DNA of 64,000 bases from a virus. The notes under the pieces were generated by a model. The model made no database searches, was not told the DNA's origin, and was given only the letters and a program-made list of their open reading frames with translations. Location of the stretch: the IMG/VR virus record IMGVR_UViG_3300017780_006957, positions 46,277 through 110,276 of that record; one strand, given 5' to 3'. Numbering within the stretch: position 1 is the first letter of the stretch; every line of letters starts with the position of its first letter. The translations under genes and the position numbers were made by a program. Positions 3,084 through 47,160 of the stretch are shown one piece after another.

Positions 3084-3704
3084 TTATTTATTGTTTAGAT
3101 AGAATTTTTTTAGCACTACTTTATTTAAGCCTCTACGACTTTCGATTTCAGGAATGATTGTTTTACGAATCCAATTTCTTTCATACCTTTGATCTTCGTT
3201 GCTCTCATCAATTTGAAGATACTTGAAAAGATTGTTTTTGTCAACCCAATTTTCAAAATTCTTTTTAATGTTCAAGATGAATGGGCGATAGATAGAAAAA
3301 GAATTAAAATCAGTAAATTCTTGAATTGGTTTGTGTTCTGGGCAACCTTTTAAAGTATTACTTATATAACTCTCTACAGCGTCTTGTAAATGCTGGCATT
3401 GAATAATTGACCCACCCACTTGAGAAAAGAATTTTAATCTTTCTTTCCTTAGTCCATCTTCAATATTTTTATCAATCTTAATAGAACATTTTTCTGTGAT
3501 AAGATTAATTTTATAGTCAGAACAAAATCTTTCGCAAGCCTTTTGCATAAGGTTGTTTTGCGGTCTTTGATTATGATTATAGTGAATAGCTTGAAATTTT
3601 TGTCCAGATTTATGAAGAAAATGAGCGCAAGCTAGACTATCTATACCGCCAGAGATAGCAATACTATAAGTTTTTGGTAGGTATTTTTTATTTATTTTGA
3701 TCAT
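3084..3704 (-). CDS. tilS: tRNA(Ile)-lysidine synthase, catalytic domain only
   Basis: PP-loop SGGIDS, HYNH, H.QD.VE, YRPF, DESN...RNWIR. Confidence 0.88.
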   Translation of the reverse strand: MIKINKKYLPKTYSIAISGGIDSLACAHFLHKSGQKFQAIHYNHNQRPQNNLMQKACERFCSDYKINLITEKCSIKIDKNIEDGLRKERLKFFSQVGGSIIQCQHLQDAVESYISNTLKGCPEHKPIQEFTDFNSFSIYRPFILNIKKNFENWVDKNNLFKYLQIDESNEDQRYERNWIRKTIIPEIESRRGLNKVVLKKFYLNNK

Positions 3705-3752
3705 TTAATTAAAAGATTATGATATTTATCATAATCAGTGTATAATAGTTAT

Positions 3753-4112
3753 ATGCAAAAATGTAATCATTGTCAAGCGAATTTATCTGGTAATCAAACT
3801 AAATGGTGTTCGGATAAATGCAAACATTCTGTCGCAAATGCGAAACATCAAAATTATCAAGCTCAACAGGAAAGAGGCAAGTCTAGAAAAAGAGATTTAA
3901 TTAAAATGAAAGGCGGCGGATGTGAAATTTGTGGTTATAAAAAATCTACAGCCGCTCTATGTTTCCATCATTTAGACCCTTCAATAAAAAAATTTGAATT
4001 AGATATAAGAAGCTTATCAAATAGAAGACTAGATTATATCTTGGATGAAGCCTCAAAATGTCAATTACTTTGCTCTAATTGTCATATGGAAGTTCATCAT
4101 GGTTTAGTATAA
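3753..4112 (+). CDS. HNH endonuclease
   Basis: CEICGY..ALCFHH.DP..K...KCQLLCSNCHMEVH; GTGTAT upstream. Confidence 0.85.
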   Translation: MQKCNHCQANLSGNQTKWCSDKCKHSVANAKHQNYQAQQERGKSRKRDLIKMKGGGCEICGYKKSTAALCFHHLDPSIKKFELDIRSLSNRRLDYILDEASKCQLLCSNCHMEVHHGLV

Positions 4113-4120
4113 AATTAAAG

Positions 4121-4210
4121 TACAAAAGGTGAGACTCGAACTCACAAAGGACTTTCACGTCCATAACGGTTTATGAAACCGCGCCCTTAACCAATTCGGG
4201 TCACTTTTGC
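4121..4210 (-). tRNA. tRNA with CAU anticodon (Ile2/Met) and long variable arm
   Basis: GCAAAAG/CTTTTGT-A, GCGGT-TTCATAA-ACCGT, variable arm GGAC-GTGAAA-GTCC, GTGAG-TTCGAGT-CTCAC. Confidence 0.85.
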
Positions 4211-4223
4211 ATTATTTAGAAAG

Positions 4224-4301
4224 TGGTAGTCACGGTGGAATTCGAATCCACACTGTAATGATTTTAAGTCATTTGTCTCCTACCAGTTGGACTACGTGAC
4301 C
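4224..4301 (-). tRNA. tRNA-Leu(UAA), short variable loop
   Basis: GGTCACG/CGTGACT-A-CCA, AATGA-CTTAAAA-TCATT. Confidence 0.9.
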
Positions 4302-4416: not shown

Positions 4417-5727
4417 ATGTCCGCTCAATACACTTTTAATCACCTTGGGCAGCTGTCCCACAGTGCAGCCACAATGCCGTGTCTTTATGATAGCGCACAA
4501 GATGTATATAGACCAATAAATGATTTAGATTTTGGTGGCCAAGGAAGCTATACATCAAAGGGAAGATTAAAAACTTCAAACGTCGAAACGTTCTTCTTTA
4601 ATACATTTCAATATGGTAAAGAAACCGATATTTGGGACGAATCAACTGCAAATGGTGGTTCAGGAATATACGATTCTAACATTAATCAAATTGATATGTC
4701 AGTCAGTAATATCTCTGGATCTGAATGCGTTAGACAGACAAAAAATGTCCAAAGATATGTTCCTTCAAGAAATTCTAATTTAGCTTTTGCGGTTAAATTA
4801 GGAAATCCAACTCTTGGAATTAGAAGACGTTTTGGTTTGTTTGAGCCAAACGATGGAATCTTTTTCGAAGATGGCGGCGATAATAATTATTATTGTGTTA
4901 TCCGTAGTTCTGTTAGCGGCTCAGTGAATGAAATTAAAGTCGCAAGAAACAATTGGAATGGTGACAAATTAGATGGAACTGGACCAAGTAAAATAATTGC
5001 AAATCCGCAAGCTCAACAATTAATTGCCATTGATTATGAATGGTATGGTGCTGGTGAGATAGGATTTAATTATGTTATTAATGGATCTCCCGTGAGAATA
5101 CACACATTTAATACAGCAAATAATTTTACTGATCCTTGGTGCAAAACTCCATTCTTACCTATAAGAGTAGAAATAACAAACACTAGTGGCGGTCAATCTA
5201 GCGGTAGATATCATATTTATCAAGGATCAAATTCATTAACCTCAGAAGGAAATTCATTAAATCTTGGCGTTGCAGAGTCTATTTCTACATCAATAGATGG
5301 AAAAGAAATTCCTAAAGATATATTTTATCCGTTAATAAGCTTAAGATTAAAATCTAATTCACTTAAAGGAGTTGTTTTTCCAAGACATTTTCAAGTAGCA
5401 ACTACTGAAAATAATGTCCATGTTTTTTATAAAATACTTAGAAATGCCGCTATATCTGGGGCTGTTTGGCAAAATCATCCAGATACTAATTCATTTGTTC
5501 AATATGATATTTCTGGAACAGCATATAGTAATGGGCAAACTGTTGATGATGGTTTTGTTGTATATGGATCTTCCGCAGGTCAAATAGAACTTGATGATGC
5601 ATTAAATTATCAAATAGGTAGAAGCGGCATGGGTCTATACAGTGATACTTACACATTGGCCGTAGCTCATACGGCATCCACAAATAGAAGCGTCATAGGA
5701 TCTATGTCTTGGATTGAACAGAGATAA
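4417..5727 (+). CDS. putative virion structural protein (beta-rich)
   Basis: 436 aa, G/S/N-rich; GTGTAA at 4389-4394. Confidence 0.7.
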   Translation: MSAQYTFNHLGQLSHSAATMPCLYDSAQDVYRPINDLDFGGQGSYTSKGRLKTSNVETFFFNTFQYGKETDIWDESTANGGSGIYDSNINQIDMSVSNISGSECVRQTKNVQRYVPSRNSNLAFAVKLGNPTLGIRRRFGLFEPNDGIFFEDGGDNNYYCVIRSSVSGSVNEIKVARNNWNGDKLDGTGPSKIIANPQAQQLIAIDYEWYGAGEIGFNYVINGSPVRIHTFNTANNFTDPWCKTPFLPIRVEITNTSGGQSSGRYHIYQGSNSLTSEGNSLNLGVAESISTSIDGKEIPKDIFYPLISLRLKSNSLKGVVFPRHFQVATTENNVHVFYKILRNAAISGAVWQNHPDTNSFVQYDISGTAYSNGQTVDDGFVVYGSSAGQIELDDALNYQIGRSGMGLYSDTYTLAVAHTASTNRSVIGSMSWIEQR

Positions 5728-5729
5728 TA

Positions 5730-5760
5730 AAAAAGCCTATCTTTTGAAGATAGGCTTTTT
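5730..5760. terminator. bidirectional intrinsic terminator
   Basis: AAAAAGCCTATCTT-TTG-AAGATAGGCTTTTT between convergent units. Confidence 0.85.
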
Positions 5761-5767
5761 AATGAAA

Positions 5768-5854
5768 TGGAGCTAAAGGTGAGATTCGAACTCACGGTGC
5801 GCTTTCGCATCTCGATTACAAATCGAGTCCTTTCGACCACTGAGGGACTTTAGC
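5768..5854 (-). tRNA. tRNA-Thr(UGU) with long variable arm
   Basis: GCTAAAG/CTTTAGC-T-CCA, CTCGA-TTTGTAA-TCGAG, variable arm TGCG-AAAG-CGCA. Confidence 0.85.
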
Positions 5855-5888
5855 AAAATATTAATTAATAATGGTTATGAAGTAAAAA

Positions 5889-5962
5889 GGCTCCCAGTTT
5901 TGGCAACGATCCAAACTCACACTGCTTAACAGGCAGGTCGCACGCCCTGTGCGTTACTGGGA
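5889..5962 (-). tRNA. tRNA-Asn(GUU), divergent T-loop
   Basis: TCCCAGT/ACTGGGA-G-CC, CTGC-CTGTTAA-GCAG, T-loop ATCGTTG. Confidence 0.8.
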
Positions 5963-5993
5963 TTTATATCTTATTATATAAGAATAAGAAAGT

Positions 5994-6162
5994 TTTTCTA
6001 TCGCTGAAGAAGTCCCCCGTTTCCACAGAGGTCAATGACCCTTCTTCACTTTTCTACAAGTACTAACTCGCTGGAGAGTTTGACCACGCGATGCGTAGCT
6101 ACACTCATTTTCCTGTCCGTTTTCTCTGAATACTTCGGGCGATCAAAACGCACGATAGAAAA
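5994..6162 (-). ncRNA. unknown structured RNA module R9
   Basis: 10-bp terminal stem TTTTCTATCG/CGATAGAAAA; internal TGAAGAAG/CTTCTTCA and GGAA-capped hairpin. Confidence 0.65.
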
Positions 6163-6166
6163 TTGA

Positions 6167-6228
6167 CCAATTCCTGACCTGCCGCGCACTACTTTATCAG
6201 GTATAGCCGCTTGCAGTCAGGCAATTGG
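6167..6228 (-). ncRNA. unknown hairpin RNA module R8
   Basis: CCAATT-g-CCTGAC-TGC...GCA-g-GTCAGG-AATTGG. Confidence 0.6.
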
Positions 6229-6234
6229 AAATGG

Positions 6235-6401
6235 TTTTGCGGCTCAGGTCGCTATATCGTGCAATGTGTTCCCAACCGAATAATCGTCTCGAAAGACTCG
6301 ATTTCTATCAACTGCATTAACCCATCACTGAATCGTGCGTTTTATGTTGACTACCTTGCACAAACGTCTTAGTTGACGAATACCCCTCAATGACCGCAAA
6401 A
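6235..6401 (-). ncRNA. unknown structured RNA module R7
   Basis: TTTTGCGG-TCA/TGA-g-CCGCAAAA terminal stem; GTCT-TTCG-AGAC hairpin. Confidence 0.65.
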
Positions 6402-6405
6402 TTAG

Positions 6406-6562
6406 TTTATCTGTCAGACCTTAACGCCTATGCCCCTCGCGCATAGACAGCATCTTCGCTGGTTCACGGATGGGCCACTTTGTAGTGCCGTAAGTGCAGC
6501 ACCTCAGACGGATCTCCAGCATAGGTCTTCACAGCTGTGTGTAGATATTCTCGACAGATAAA
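6406..6562 (-). ncRNA. unknown structured RNA module R6
   Basis: 10-bp terminal stem TTTATCTGTC/GACAGATAAA; GTCTATGC/GCATAGGC and CAGC/GCTG hairpins. Confidence 0.65.
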
Positions 6563-6565
6563 AAA

Positions 6566-6679
6566 TGCAGAAGAGATTGGATTCGAACCAATATTGTACC
6601 ATACTGCCCTTGGGCATCCAAGGAATCGAACCTTAACGAAATAACCGTCGCTATTGCATTGCCGTTATGCTACTCTTCT
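6566..6679 (-). ncRNA. tRNA-like RNA R5 with anticodon arm replaced and two T-arms
   Basis: AGAAGAG/CTCTTCT acceptor, GCAT/ATGC D-arm, ATTGG-TTCGAAT-CCAAT plus internal AAGG-TTCGATT-CCTT. Confidence 0.7.
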
Positions 6680-6685
6680 AAAAAA

Positions 6686-6760
6686 GGTGGCTAGAGTGTT
6701 TGTGGAATCTCAGGAATTGCATCCTGTTATACTAGTAACTTGCCAGATTCCCTCTAGCCA
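6686..6760 (-). ncRNA. tRNA-like RNA module R4
   Basis: GGCTAGAG/CTCTAGCC-A-CC, GAATCT/AGATTC, CAGGA-TGCAAT-TCCTG. Confidence 0.6.
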
Positions 6761-6772
6761 TTGAAAATTTGT

Positions 6773-6866
6773 CCATAGAGTATGCACTCTCAATGCGTTA
6801 TGCAGGACTGGCACTAGCTATATGAATCCTTATAGCTGGAGAAGGAAGCCCGTAACCTTCATATGG
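6773..6866 (-). ncRNA. unknown multibranch RNA module R3
   Basis: CCATA/TATGG closing stem; GAAGG/CCTTC, AGCTATA/TATAGCT, AGAGT/ACTCT hairpins. Confidence 0.55.
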
Positions 6867-6875
6867 CTTTTTATA

Positions 6876-6960
6876 TTTACAATGTATGGTTATTAACCCA
6901 CACGGAATTTCAAGCATTAACCCACTACGTATATGGTAACTCACCGATTTCCATTGCAAA
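6876..6960 (-). ncRNA. unknown RNA module R2
   Basis: TTTGCAATG/CATTGTAAA terminal stem; two TGGGTTAAT copies. Confidence 0.5.
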
Positions 6961-6967
6961 AATTAAT

Positions 6968-7080
6968 ATTCCTTTAATGGTAGGCGTTGTCGCATTCAAA
7001 TCTCTACCCACCACAATCGCTTCAAGATTCTCGTTCGCTTACCGCACGGGGCATGAAGCCCCTTGTCCCATTAAGGGAAT
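6968..7080 (-). ncRNA. unknown structured RNA module R1
   Basis: ATTCCCTTAATGG/CCATTAAAGGAAT terminal stem (12 of 13 pair); GGGGC-TTCAT-GCCCC. Confidence 0.65.
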
Positions 7081-7103
7081 AAAATTTTTAAAATTTTTAT
7101 TTA

Positions 7104-7113
7104 TTAAAGAACA
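7104..7113 (-). promoter_or_regulatory. boxA antitermination element
   Basis: TGTTCTTTAA downstream of hairpin 7122-7142, as in rrn leaders. Confidence 0.7.
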
Positions 7114-7187
7114 GTATTTTATCTCTAATCGTTGACTAGAGAGGATCTTTCGAATCTGAGTGACTCCTATTCAATCGATCTATTTAG

Positions 7188-7216
7188 ATAATAACTTATG
7201 TTTTCGCTTATGTCAA
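7188..7216 (-). promoter_or_regulatory. sigma70 promoter of RNA operon
   Basis: TTGACA-17-TATTAT. Confidence 0.8.
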
Positions 7217-7219
7217 CTT

Positions 7220-7438
7220 TTATCTTAGATTTAATTCACTCTCTACTTTTCGGAATCTGTCATCAGAATGCCAGATTTCATTTACTTGTGGAGTATAAAC
7301 TCCATCAAGGGTTTGAATCGGGACGTTCTTTTGCAGCTTTAAAGTAGAAGGTTGATAAATTTTCCAGTTCTTCACGTTCTCGTTTGAGTTCCATACGCAG
7401 GAGGTCTGCGCGATCAGCAGAAGAGCTGCCCCCATCAT
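7220..7438 (-). CDS. lipoprotein, putative o-spanin
   Basis: MMGAALLLIAQTS-C lipobox-like start; overlaps upstream ORF in another frame (start could be further upstream). Confidence 0.6.
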   Translation of the reverse strand: MMGAALLLIAQTSCVWNSNENVKNWKIYQPSTLKLQKNVPIQTLDGVYTPQVNEIWHSDDRFRKVESELNLR

Positions 7439-7574
7439 TACGCAGCTTTTCAATTTCGTCAAGTATTTCTTTTTGTCTATTTTTTGATTTGATTCTGATT
7501 TCATAATAAAATGATTTGTTTTTTAAGTTTAAATAAAGTTCCAGTGATTTAATTAAAGAAGTTAAAATTCCCAT
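7305..7574 (-). CDS. putative i-spanin / coiled-coil protein
   Basis: Helical charged body, Rz/Rz1-like overlap; N-terminal TM weak. Confidence 0.45.
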   Translation of the reverse strand: MGILTSLIKSLELYLNLKNKSFYYEIRIKSKNRQKEILDEIEKLRNDGGSSSADRADLLRMELKREREELENLSTFYFKAAKERPDSNP

Positions 7575-7580
7575 ATTAAA

Positions 7581-8144
7581 TTATATAAAACTTTTCCACT
7601 CTTTTCTAATTTTGGACACCTGAAGAAAAAGATTAGGAATTACTGGAGCTTTTACTATTTCATTTTTAATATTAAAAAATGGAGAATGATCGGACTTCTT
7701 TTGATTGCAGTCAAGACAAGCCAAAGTCCTATTTTCGTGTTCATCAGTTCCGCCCTTACTTTTTGGTTTGATGTGATCAATAGTAAGATCTGCGATTTTA
7801 AATTTCTTTAAACAATACTGGCAAATAGAATCATGAATTCTGCTTAATTCCGCCAAAGATAGTTTTTTCTTTTTGGGTTTTTTAAAAAATTTACTGGTTA
7901 CAATAATAATTGTTGGAATTGGCCAAGAGCGTTTTGCGCTACGAAGAACGGGCTGATCTTCATGGAACTCCGCATAATCATTCCACTTCTCTATAGAATC
8001 AAACAAATTATTGTTTTTATCTAAAGCGGTGACATTTTGACTTAATAGATGCGCGAAAGCAGCCTTTGCTGTGATGGCAGTGATAGGTTGCCAAGCGTTA
8101 TTAAGTAAGAGTGTGGTTCTAGTATTGCAATCTACGATGTTCAT
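7581..8144 (-). CDS. HNH endonuclease (McrA-like)
   Basis: TLLLN..WQP, CQYC, TIDHIKPKSKGG...N...AC..CNQKK. Confidence 0.88.
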   Translation of the reverse strand: MNIVDCNTRTTLLLNNAWQPITAITAKAAFAHLLSQNVTALDKNNNLFDSIEKWNDYAEFHEDQPVLRSAKRSWPIPTIIIVTSKFFKKPKKKKLSLAELSRIHDSICQYCLKKFKIADLTIDHIKPKSKGGTDEHENRTLACLDCNQKKSDHSPFFNIKNEIVKAPVIPNLFLQVSKIRKEWKSFI

Positions 8145-46015: not shown

Positions 46016-47160
46016 TAATTTAAATCTGAGATTGATCGCTTAAAATAACCAATCAAAAAGTCGCATAGTTTTTCATCATCTTCGATTAATTTAAATAGGT
46101 TGGCATCACCGTGAACTTTTTCTGGAAACTCTAAACCATTTTCATTAAGAAGCTCTTTGAATTCATCTACAGGATTAATCCATGCTCCTTTCTTTTCTAA
46201 GAATTCCCAAGCATATAGCAGATCTACAATTTCTTTTTGAACCCAAATAGAAGTCCCATTCTTTCGACCATAACGAATTGGATAAGTAATTGTCATGTTG
46301 GTTTTTTCATTTGGAGATTTTTTGATTGTCGCTTTGGCGAAATGACCAATGATTGGATTTTTTTTCAAATCAATTGTTTTATTTGCTGGATCTTGCAGAA
46401 TGAGATCTCCTTTATATCGAGGCTCAAATTCTACAATATAATTTGCAAAGTGCAAAAGGGCATTACCTCCTGTCGCGCTTGTTTGGCGAATTGGGGCTTT
46501 GGAATATGGGTCGAGCTTAATGTCTGCTCTAACTTGGCTGATAAAAATTGCCATATGGCCGCGCTTTGTGAGAGCGATTGAAAGACGCTTCATGAAATTA
46601 GCAGCAATGACTGCGCCGCCAGCTACTTTATTGCTGTCTTCGAAAGACTTATCAAGATCTCCTTTAGTAATAAGACCGTCTACAGAGTCGAGAAGAAAAC
46701 AATACTTTGTCTTCTGTTCATTTTTGGCGACGAGTTCCCGCATTACTTCAACTACCGTTTCATAGATGTTACTTTCGAATACGAAACAAGTGCCATCCAC
46801 CCATTCATCCGCTGAAAATACAAACCGAACGCCCGACCTTTCTCTCATTTCTGGAGAGAGTCTTCCTTCTGCTTTAATATAAAAACCTTTGGCGTTTGGA
46901 AGGCTATTGCAAAAATTCTTCATAACCTCCAACGATTCTGAAGTTTTTCCTCCCTCATTCATTCCAACAAAACGGTGAAGCCCTGGGCCAAATCCACCGC
47001 CCAATTGCAGGTCAAATTGCAAAGACCCGCTTGATACCTTATAATCAATTTCATCTTCAAAATTATAATGATCTTCTTTATTTGTCTTTAAGAAAGATCC
47101 TAAAACATTTTGGGATGAAATTGGATCTTTTGCTTCTTTGATTTCTTTAATTTTACTCAT
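46015..47160 (-). CDS. recA: RecA-like recombinase
   Basis: SSGSL.FD..LGGG, GMNEGGKT, LDSV, FISQVR, TGGNAL. Confidence 0.9.
   Translation of the reverse strand: MSKIKEIKEAKDPISSQNVLGSFLKTNKEDHYNFEDEIDYKVSSGSLQFDLQLGGGFGPGLHRFVGMNEGGKTSESLEVMKNFCNSLPNAKGFYIKAEGRLSPEMRERSGVRFVFSADEWVDGTCFVFESNIYETVVEVMRELVAKNEQKTKYCFLLDSVDGLITKGDLDKSFEDSNKVAGGAVIAANFMKRLSIALTKRGHMAIFISQVRADIKLDPYSKAPIRQTSATGGNALLHFANYIVEFEPRYKGDLILQDPANKTIDLKKNPIIGHFAKATIKKSPNEKTNMTITYPIRYGRKNGTSIWVQKEIVDLLYAWEFLEKKGAWINPVDEFKELLNENGLEFPEKVHGDANLFKLIEDDEKLCDFLIGYFKRSISDLN

Follow-up and report, generated by a model that had tools for sequence, protein, structure and literature searches.

What does a phage encode in a stretch of DNA that contains no credible reading frame, is richer in GC than its flanks and ends in two tRNA genes? 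This question is raised by positions 7216–5730 of a 64,000-nucleotide (nt) stretch of viral DNA (IMG/VR record IMGVR_UViG_3300017780_006957, positions 46,277 to 110,276), the whole of which is referred to below as the window. Read on the minus strand, on which all features described here are located, the elements follow each other in the order promoter, two leader hairpins, boxA-like word, nine modules (M1 to M9), tRNA-Asn, tRNA-Thr and terminator, and every element listed in an initial annotation of the sequence was found at the place given there. The locus is likely to be a stable-RNA operon, in which independent small structured RNA genes are co-transcribed with tRNAs and probably matured like tRNAs.

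Nine stem-closed modules on the minus strand

The array differs from its surroundings in composition, with a GC content of 0.41–0.48 compared with about 0.30–0.38 in the flanks. Credible reading frames are absent over the ~1.1 kb of the module region. The longest frame inside the stretch comprises 90 amino acids and lies on the opposite strand; it matched zero families in Pfam and is disrupted by indels in related arrays. A 10-codon ATG frame within M3 was rejected, as the start reads ACG in three relatives. The nearest genuine upstream gene stops at 7305. Folding of the whole stretch yields −355 kcal/mol for the minus strand versus −310.6 kcal/mol for the plus strand, a difference of 44 kcal/mol, and G-U pairs are numerous in the conserved helices of the modules. 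These frequent G-U pairs fix the minus strand as the RNA strand. The elevated GC content, the lack of a credible open reading frame and the preference for the minus strand had all been noted in the initial annotation, and each of them held up.

The modules abut each other and measure 73–169 nt, each being closed by its own helix of 5–13 base pairs (bp). They are separated by A/U-rich spacers of 2–10 nt, most of which end in a U run, as is also seen ahead of tRNA-Thr. An internal repeat search indicated that the modules are not paralogs of one another. Stem-closed modules parted by U-rich spacers had been described in the initial annotation, and the borders gain independent confirmation from the related arrays, in which the indels between relatives fall in the U-rich spacers.

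These relatives were obtained by scanning viral and metagenome contigs for exact words taken from M3, M6 and M1. About eight related arrays were found in lake and marine viral contigs, comprising G001/L165 (96–98% identical), a lineage B (L166–L169) and a lineage C (L164, L172 and L180), as well as L171 from a marine assembly, L170, L174, L175/L176/L181, L177 and L178. Neither blastn nor nhmmer detected array homologs in 160 viral loci retrieved via the neighbouring structural protein and ThyX, and a blastn search of 50,697 phage records with the array gave no match. A 24-mer of M3 was likewise absent from 185,579 prokaryote genomes, which gives no sign of a host origin or a prophage copy.

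Covarying helices and exchange of modules between relatives

The folding energies of the individual modules range from clearly better than shuffled sequence to no better, with z-scores of −4.25 for M4, −3.2 for M8, −3.1 for M5, −2.4 for M1, −0.3 for M7 and +0.16 for M3; a true tRNA of the same operon reaches only −1.4. Folding energy alone thus appears unconvincing, and the case for structure rests on the comparison with relatives. Since the shuffle control used for this comparison ignores the relatedness of the sequences, its counts (given below as hits per 500 shuffles) have to be read accordingly.

M1 (6968–7080, about 113 nt) consists of a 13-bp closing helix, a GC hairpin and a variable middle part, which is deleted in L171. 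Across four distinct sequences, 95.8% of the cells are paired and eight pairs are changed on both sides, five of them in the closing helix (0/500). M6 (6410–6560, 151 nt) is represented by nine distinct homologs with 98.9% of the cells paired and double changes in four pairs and nine cells (0/500); a possible pseudoknot between a loop and upstream sequence varies too little for testing. In M7 (6232–6400), which measures about 169 nt including a 3' A-CCA and has a 7-bp closing helix, all cells (100%) are paired in six distinct sequences and six pairs are double-changed (0/500). The same degree of pairing is found in six distinct sequences of M8 (6166–6228), a long irregular hairpin whose apical loop does not vary, with two double-changed pairs (11/500). 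Sliding the partners by 1–3 columns lowers the pairing of M1, M6, M7 and M8 to 27–52%.

Fewer changes were found in the remaining modules. Pairs changed on both sides number two in M4 (6686–6762, 75 nt plus a 3' A-CC tail), two in M3 (in variants of 83–90%) and three among four homologs of M9 (5999–6158, about 160 nt, 8-bp closing helix). In M2 (6876–6960, 85 nt) the closing helix is stacked on a T-arm-like hairpin and accompanied by a variable hairpin. At the position of the latter, seven homologs carry at least four unrelated stems between invariant flanks, for example CCAU/GUGG, GUGCAUA/UAUGCAU and GAGUAUA/UAUACUU. M5 (6568–6679, 112 nt) contains a hairpin that switches from UGCCC/GGGCA to UUGUU/AACAA in relatives. 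Taken together, compensatory changes support the predicted helices in all nine modules. Covariation among homologs had been proposed in the initial annotation as a check, and compensatory base-pair changes were indeed found.

Beyond their helices, the modules behave as cassettes. G001 lacks exactly M5, and other units occupy the place of M9. DNA contigs from one lake run (X2) skip 6873–6971 (M2), 6559–6678 (M5) or 6150–6766, with the joints located in spacers. The order of the modules differs in L169, L172, L171, L174, L176, L177 and L178, and in the relatives the modules are interleaved with bona fide tRNA genes, up to 16 per locus, and with protein genes. M6 occurs without M7–M9 (L174 and L177), and M7, which invariably adjoins M8, is always found together with it. 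Varying subsets of the relatives also share other conserved blocks that are not tRNAs, at least ten in number. The modules are therefore separate genetic units that are gained, lost and reordered by related phages.

This behaviour bears on the idea of a single large ornate RNA comparable to GOLLD or ROOL, with the modules as its domains, that would fold or multimerize into a particle of 1.2 kb. The predicted co-transcription, the position next to tRNAs and the lake phage that carries the array would suit such an RNA, as GOLLD and ROOL occur near phage tRNA islands and tRNAs are sometimes found within the GOLLD linker (PMC12286853). The joint travel of M7 and M8, a palindromic loop in M4 and a perfect complementarity of 12 nt between M7 (6332–6343) and the 5' end of M9 (6145–6156) would also be in line with a common fold. 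However, near-identical relatives lack single modules, the modules of relatives are parted by real tRNAs, protein genes and distances of up to 1.5 kb, and M6 is found without M7–M9 in the two arrays named above. L172 has lost the M7 side of the 12-nt complementarity and retained the M9 side, so that the two are not obviously co-conserved. Moreover, no match to GOLLD or ROOL was obtained at E-values up to 10 with lax filters. A single large RNA is thus very unlikely. The multi-piece assembly considered in the initial annotation is disfavoured for the same reason, as the modules are gained or lost one at a time and, in related arrays, have tRNA and protein genes lying between them.

The internal loop of M4 (6724–6742) deserves separate mention. 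It contains the 6-nt palindrome ACUAGU, in place of which lineage B has a different palindrome, GAAUUC (L169:1566–1580). A self-complementary loop of this kind may suit kissing-loop dimerisation, an observation resting on two variants, since a further scan with M4 words returned zero new ones.

Clean presence or absence of whole units, together with homing-endonuclease genes inside the relatives' arrays and beside the array of the window, could also be expected of elements acting at the DNA level, be it miniature mobile elements whose stems are terminal inverted repeats or target cassettes of homing endonucleases. However, the units are single-copy and mutually unrelated, the many G-U pairs of their helices would turn into A-C mismatches if the other strand were the folded one, and covariation extends beyond the ends to internal hairpins. 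In M1 the terminal stem itself can be assigned to an RNA helix rather than a DNA inverted repeat because the closing helix covaries. In addition, relatives of the units occur in contigs from RNA libraries. An explanation at the DNA level hence deserves scarcely any credence.

The endonuclease genes within the arrays of relatives encode GIY-YIG SegE-like, HNH and REase-like proteins, and homing-type endonucleases are likely drivers of the cassette exchange. Genes of this kind (GIY-YIG SegE-like, HNH, REase/DUF559-like), embedded in or adjoining the arrays, are located at L169:245–895, L169:4887–5732 and L170:133–858; in the window, a homing-type endonuclease gene adjoins the array at 7581–8144.

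Several further RNA elements were observed in the relatives. In some of them a unit shaped like a tRNA lies between M8 and M9; its loop, CCCAUAG, contains CAU, and the unit is called neither by ARAGORN nor by Rfam (L001:2525–2595, L176:3800–3870, L178:6300–6370 and L169:3210–3280). An M3 paralog comes after it, and the window contains neither of the two. A full-length tmRNA (Rfam, 135 bits) is found at L178:3515–3895 in an island of tRNAs and structured RNAs, just 5' of tRNA-Gly, and a group I intron (Rfam, 59 bits) at L174:6637–6838 in a tRNA region, on the strand shared with the nearby tRNA-Lys and tRNA-Met.

M3 (6772–6869, 98 nt) stands apart by its near-invariant sequence, which is 100% identical in three arrays that are otherwise 82–92% similar. 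Conservation this strong suggests a sequence-specific partner. It is also what trans-acting small RNAs that base-pair with host or phage mRNAs might display, given that the M3 sequence is conserved far beyond the needs of its helices and that several modules have invariant single-stranded loops, such as the apical loop of M8. Most modules, however, are compact multi-helix folds and not a seed region followed by a terminator, and complementarity of the modules, searched within the 64-kb window, is at chance level (best 11–13 nt). A role of the modules as base-pairing regulators, instead of protein binders or tRNA mimics, is judged unlikely.

Parts of M3 are also used elsewhere. The 5' hairpin and the 3' half recur separately within other modules of relatives; the hairpin has been found alone, with a change from GAAGG/CCUUC to GGAGG/CCUCC, and the 3' half is reused in another module. 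The stand-alone hairpin (loop UUACGGGCUU) forms a unit of ~35 nt with this compensatory stem change, followed by a U run, and is located at L176:1203–1235, L176:1932–1965, L177 (reverse) ~7415–7450 and L171 (reverse) ~1620–1655. It might serve as a signal for protein binding or for processing.

Leader, tRNA-like elements and a possible course of maturation

The array is preceded by a predicted sigma-70-type promoter, TTGACA-17-TATTAT (7188–7216), which matches 11 of 12 positions in a consensus scan, is retained in G001 and reads TATAAT in its second half in L171. It is followed by a leader of 60 nt with two hairpins at 7180–7144 and 7142–7122 (7122–7180, minimum free energy −20.2 kcal/mol, z −3.0), the first of which still pairs in G001 owing to A-U to G-C and U-G to U-A changes. 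The boxA-like word spans 7101–7115, with the core TGTTCTTTAA at 7113–7104. This core is present as a single copy in the 64-kb window, a count that alone is not above chance with 0.59 copies expected. More telling is its position: it is unchanged in four lineages (W, that of the window, G001, L171 and L176) and always located just 5' of M1, and it is kept in the L176-type leader, which has otherwise diverged. The version in L171 and L176 reads TGTTCTTTAACAT and agrees at 11 of 13 positions with TGCTCTTTAACAA, the E. coli rrn boxA.

What the array has in common with rrn-type boxA antitermination leaders (E. coli rrn, lambda nut) is a hairpin and then a boxA-like word, placed after the promoter and ahead of the first stable-RNA gene. 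The leader differs in that it precedes a phage operon of tRNA type instead of rRNA, and in that no boxC was identified. The conserved and well-placed word backs the proposal of the initial annotation that the leader is rrn-like, Nus-dependent antitermination itself being only predicted. A second promoter-like site, TAGAAA-16-TATAAT (5973–6000), lies 5' of tRNA-Asn and is a consensus match only (10/12). At the distal end, a terminator-like hairpin (5730–5760) with a 14-pair stem and a subsequent U run doubles for the converging structural (virion-protein) gene.

The two tRNAs of the operon are themselves unusual. tRNA-Thr (UGU; 5768–5854) was identified by ARAGORN and by Rfam (54.8 bits) and is 87 nt long with a long variable arm. 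tRNA-Asn (GUU; 5889–5962) was called by ARAGORN only and is missed by the Rfam tRNA model at E-values up to 10. It has AUCGUUG in the T loop, where a sequence of the UUCGAAU type is usual, it ends in GCC, and a 97% identical copy is present in L174.

To relate the modules to known RNAs, positions 5500–7500 were compared with the 4227 models of Rfam 15, both at gathering scores and at E-values up to 10 with lax filters. At gathering scores tRNA-Thr alone was reported in the array; the permissive search added M5, as tRNA, and weak chance matches around the terminator. GOLLD, ROOL, tmRNA, RNase P, 6S, signal recognition particle and Y RNAs, ribozymes and riboswitches were not among the Rfam matches in the array. 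The modules of the relatives were unmatched in Rfam as well, the matches there being tRNAs, the tmRNA of L178 and the group I intron of L174. The search had been suggested together with the initial annotation, and it did not return all modules as known families. The earlier view that the modules cannot be assigned to a known family holds for eight of them and has to be revised for M5, which matches the tRNA frame.

M5 scores 40.4 bits against the tRNA family RF00005 (gathering score 29), with intact acceptor, D and T arms, and it is not called by ARAGORN. In place of 13 model positions of the anticodon arm it carries about 50 nt, which comprise a second T-arm-like hairpin and the switching hairpin described above; an anticodon arm with a 7-nt loop is absent. 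With acceptor, D and T arms but no anticodon arm, M5 could be bound by proteins that recognise tRNAs and yet take no part in decoding. One account presents bacterial Y RNAs as tRNA mimics (PMC4201824), and M5 resembles the tRNA-like domains of YrlA and tmRNA as a candidate tRNA mimic without decoding function. It differs from both by the second T-arm-like hairpin, which is not known in those RNAs, and it has zero matches to Y RNA and tmRNA families in Rfam.

The setting in a tRNA array, the tRNA score of M5, the degeneracy of tRNA-Asn and the presence of tRNA-like units uncalled by ARAGORN in relatives raise the question whether the array consists of tRNA genes in decay, or of inert spacers whose sole effect is to aid tRNA processing, in either case without any function of the modules themselves. 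Eight of the nine modules, however, display no similarity to tRNA at E-values up to 10, and compensated helices and invariant loops across lineages, along with the complete conservation of M3, are unexpected in decaying DNA. Furthermore, of the 1.4 kb of the unit, no more than about 160 nt belong to the two tRNAs. Decay is therefore barely plausible as an origin of the array. Cassette behaviour, covariation and strand-specific G-U pairs together argue against a single large RNA, decayed tRNAs and DNA-level elements alike.

If the locus is a stable-RNA operon, a single transcript from one promoter with a boxA-type leader would comprise nine unrelated RNA genes, tRNA-Asn, tRNA-Thr and the terminator. 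The tRNA-maturation enzymes of the host (RNase P, RNase E or Z, 3' trimming and CCA addition) might then excise the modules at the U-rich spacers, with the closing helix of each module serving as an acceptor-like handle, and each module would persist as a small stable RNA, as T4 rnaC and rnaD do. The module ends are of interest in this respect. The closing helix of M4 is followed by ACC, ACCA or GCC, depending on the lineage, and the 7-bp closing helix of M7 by N-CCA in four of six variants; the tRNAs of the operon end in GCC and UCCA. Such tRNA-like ends fit tRNA-type end maturation, short of proof.

RNA-library contigs from three studies carry relatives of M2–M6, two of them at a word depth of 76–92, and the rearranged order of L170 and L171 is seen in them. 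They are only a weak hint of expression, although the contigs are possibly DNA-derived. The flanks are little covered or uncovered in RNA runs, which, being a contig-level observation, is no measure of differential expression, and the contig ends at 6764 are not readable as RNA ends.

As to function, protein binding or tRNA mimicry in the conflict between host and phage is a guess. In its most speculative form, the mature RNAs would bind host RNA-processing factors or defence factors that target tRNA or RNA, with M5, a tRNA frame without anticodon, as the clearest mimic, and the fast turnover of cassettes would reflect an arms race. Taken further, the array could be a fast-evolving arsenal of RNA decoys, in which each cassette is a different protein-binding RNA, such as a tRNA mimic or a dimerising hairpin, neutralises one host enzyme of RNA processing or of defence directed at tRNA or RNA, and is traded among lake phages via recombination driven by homing endonucleases. 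We consider this extended proposal rather unlikely; if true, it would be the RNA counterpart of protein anti-defence islands and suggest a role for rnaC and rnaD.

Several points weigh against an operon of independent stable RNAs with such a function. The case for promoter, boxA function and terminator consists solely of matches to consensus sequences. The alignments are small, with 4–9 related sequences each, and because one diverged lineage supplies most of the double changes in M7 and M8, the number of independent events is low. The sequence of M3 hardly varies and has no folding advantage over its shuffles, so that its conservation could reflect a non-structural cause, and the complementarity between M7 and M9 could mean an interaction between modules. 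The RNA-library data are contigs, possibly derived from DNA, and as such unable to show processing. Finally, nothing found indicates a particular protein partner or defence system.

The genes in the vicinity of the array encode a structural protein (phrog_1645), ThyX, a Mom-like protein, HNH endonucleases and a PP-loop ATPase, and by these neighbours the phage is marked as a T4-like, cyanophage-related myovirus. The structural protein has relatives of 60–88%. According to sequencing runs the phage is present in many lake metagenomes; it is a freshwater phage. The PP-loop ATPase (TilS/QueC-like, PF01171, 106 bits) is encoded at 3084–4301; a tRNA-Leu and a tRNA of 91 nt whose anticodon is CAU lie nearby. 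Odd tRNAs, namely this 91-nt CAU tRNA and the 87-nt tRNA-Thr, seem to be characteristic of this phage.

Comparison with known phage RNAs

Full-text literature searches found no published description of such arrays. A catalogue of viral structured-RNA candidates from 2023 refers to tRNA-like motifs in general terms only (PMC10690425). As the families are absent from Rfam, they are invisible to annotation, and the DNA that encodes them is left as unexplained intergenic space. The related arrays point to a pool of at least 20 families under apparent purifying selection on structure, with a turnover fast enough to produce differences between 97%-identical genomes. This pattern of turnover and selection is typical of loci involved in host-virus conflict. 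For experiments, the module borders, the covarying helices and the tRNA frame without anticodon supply concrete constructs.

Among known phage RNAs, GOLLD and ROOL share the setting next to tRNA islands, in the case of GOLLD sometimes with tRNAs inside a variable linker, as well as lake-derived members and a function that is still undetermined (PMC12286853). They are, however, single RNAs of 500–800 nt with one conserved architecture, whereas the units described here are independent and reshuffled; the array neither matches their covariance models nor shows the make-up of one large RNA with a conserved multi-domain core.

The closest parallel is provided by phage T4, in whose tRNA cluster small stable RNAs have been on record since the 1970s. 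There, tRNA-Arg, rnaD (species 2, 119 nt) and rnaC (species 1, 139 nt) abut each other next to segB, with spacers of 1–6 nt. Like rnaC and rnaD, the modules are non-coding, located in or at the end of a phage tRNA cluster on the strand of the tRNA genes, and directly abutting. In both phages a homing endonuclease gene is present at the cluster, segB in the case of T4, and rnaC ends in a T arm, by which it resembles M5. A blastn-short comparison of the modules with rnaC and rnaD gave chance words and a shared T-loop motif only. Since sequence homology is absent, the modules can be assigned to the same kind of RNA gene as rnaC and rnaD and not to the same families. The expectation of an undescribed system, expressed in the initial annotation, thus applies to the families, whereas the kind is known from T4, where the function of rnaD and rnaC is still undetermined (PMC9697503).

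The differences lie in scale and layout. T4 has two such RNAs, in contrast to nine in a row in this phage and at least ten further families in its relatives. Moreover, the RNAs come first and the tRNAs last in the array described here, which has its own predicted promoter and a boxA-like leader. In common freshwater phages the small-RNA phenomenon of T4 would hence be much larger, with rows of nine or more unrelated folded RNAs. In conclusion, comparison with T4 indicates a kind of phage RNA gene that is already known, represented here by new families in a far larger array.

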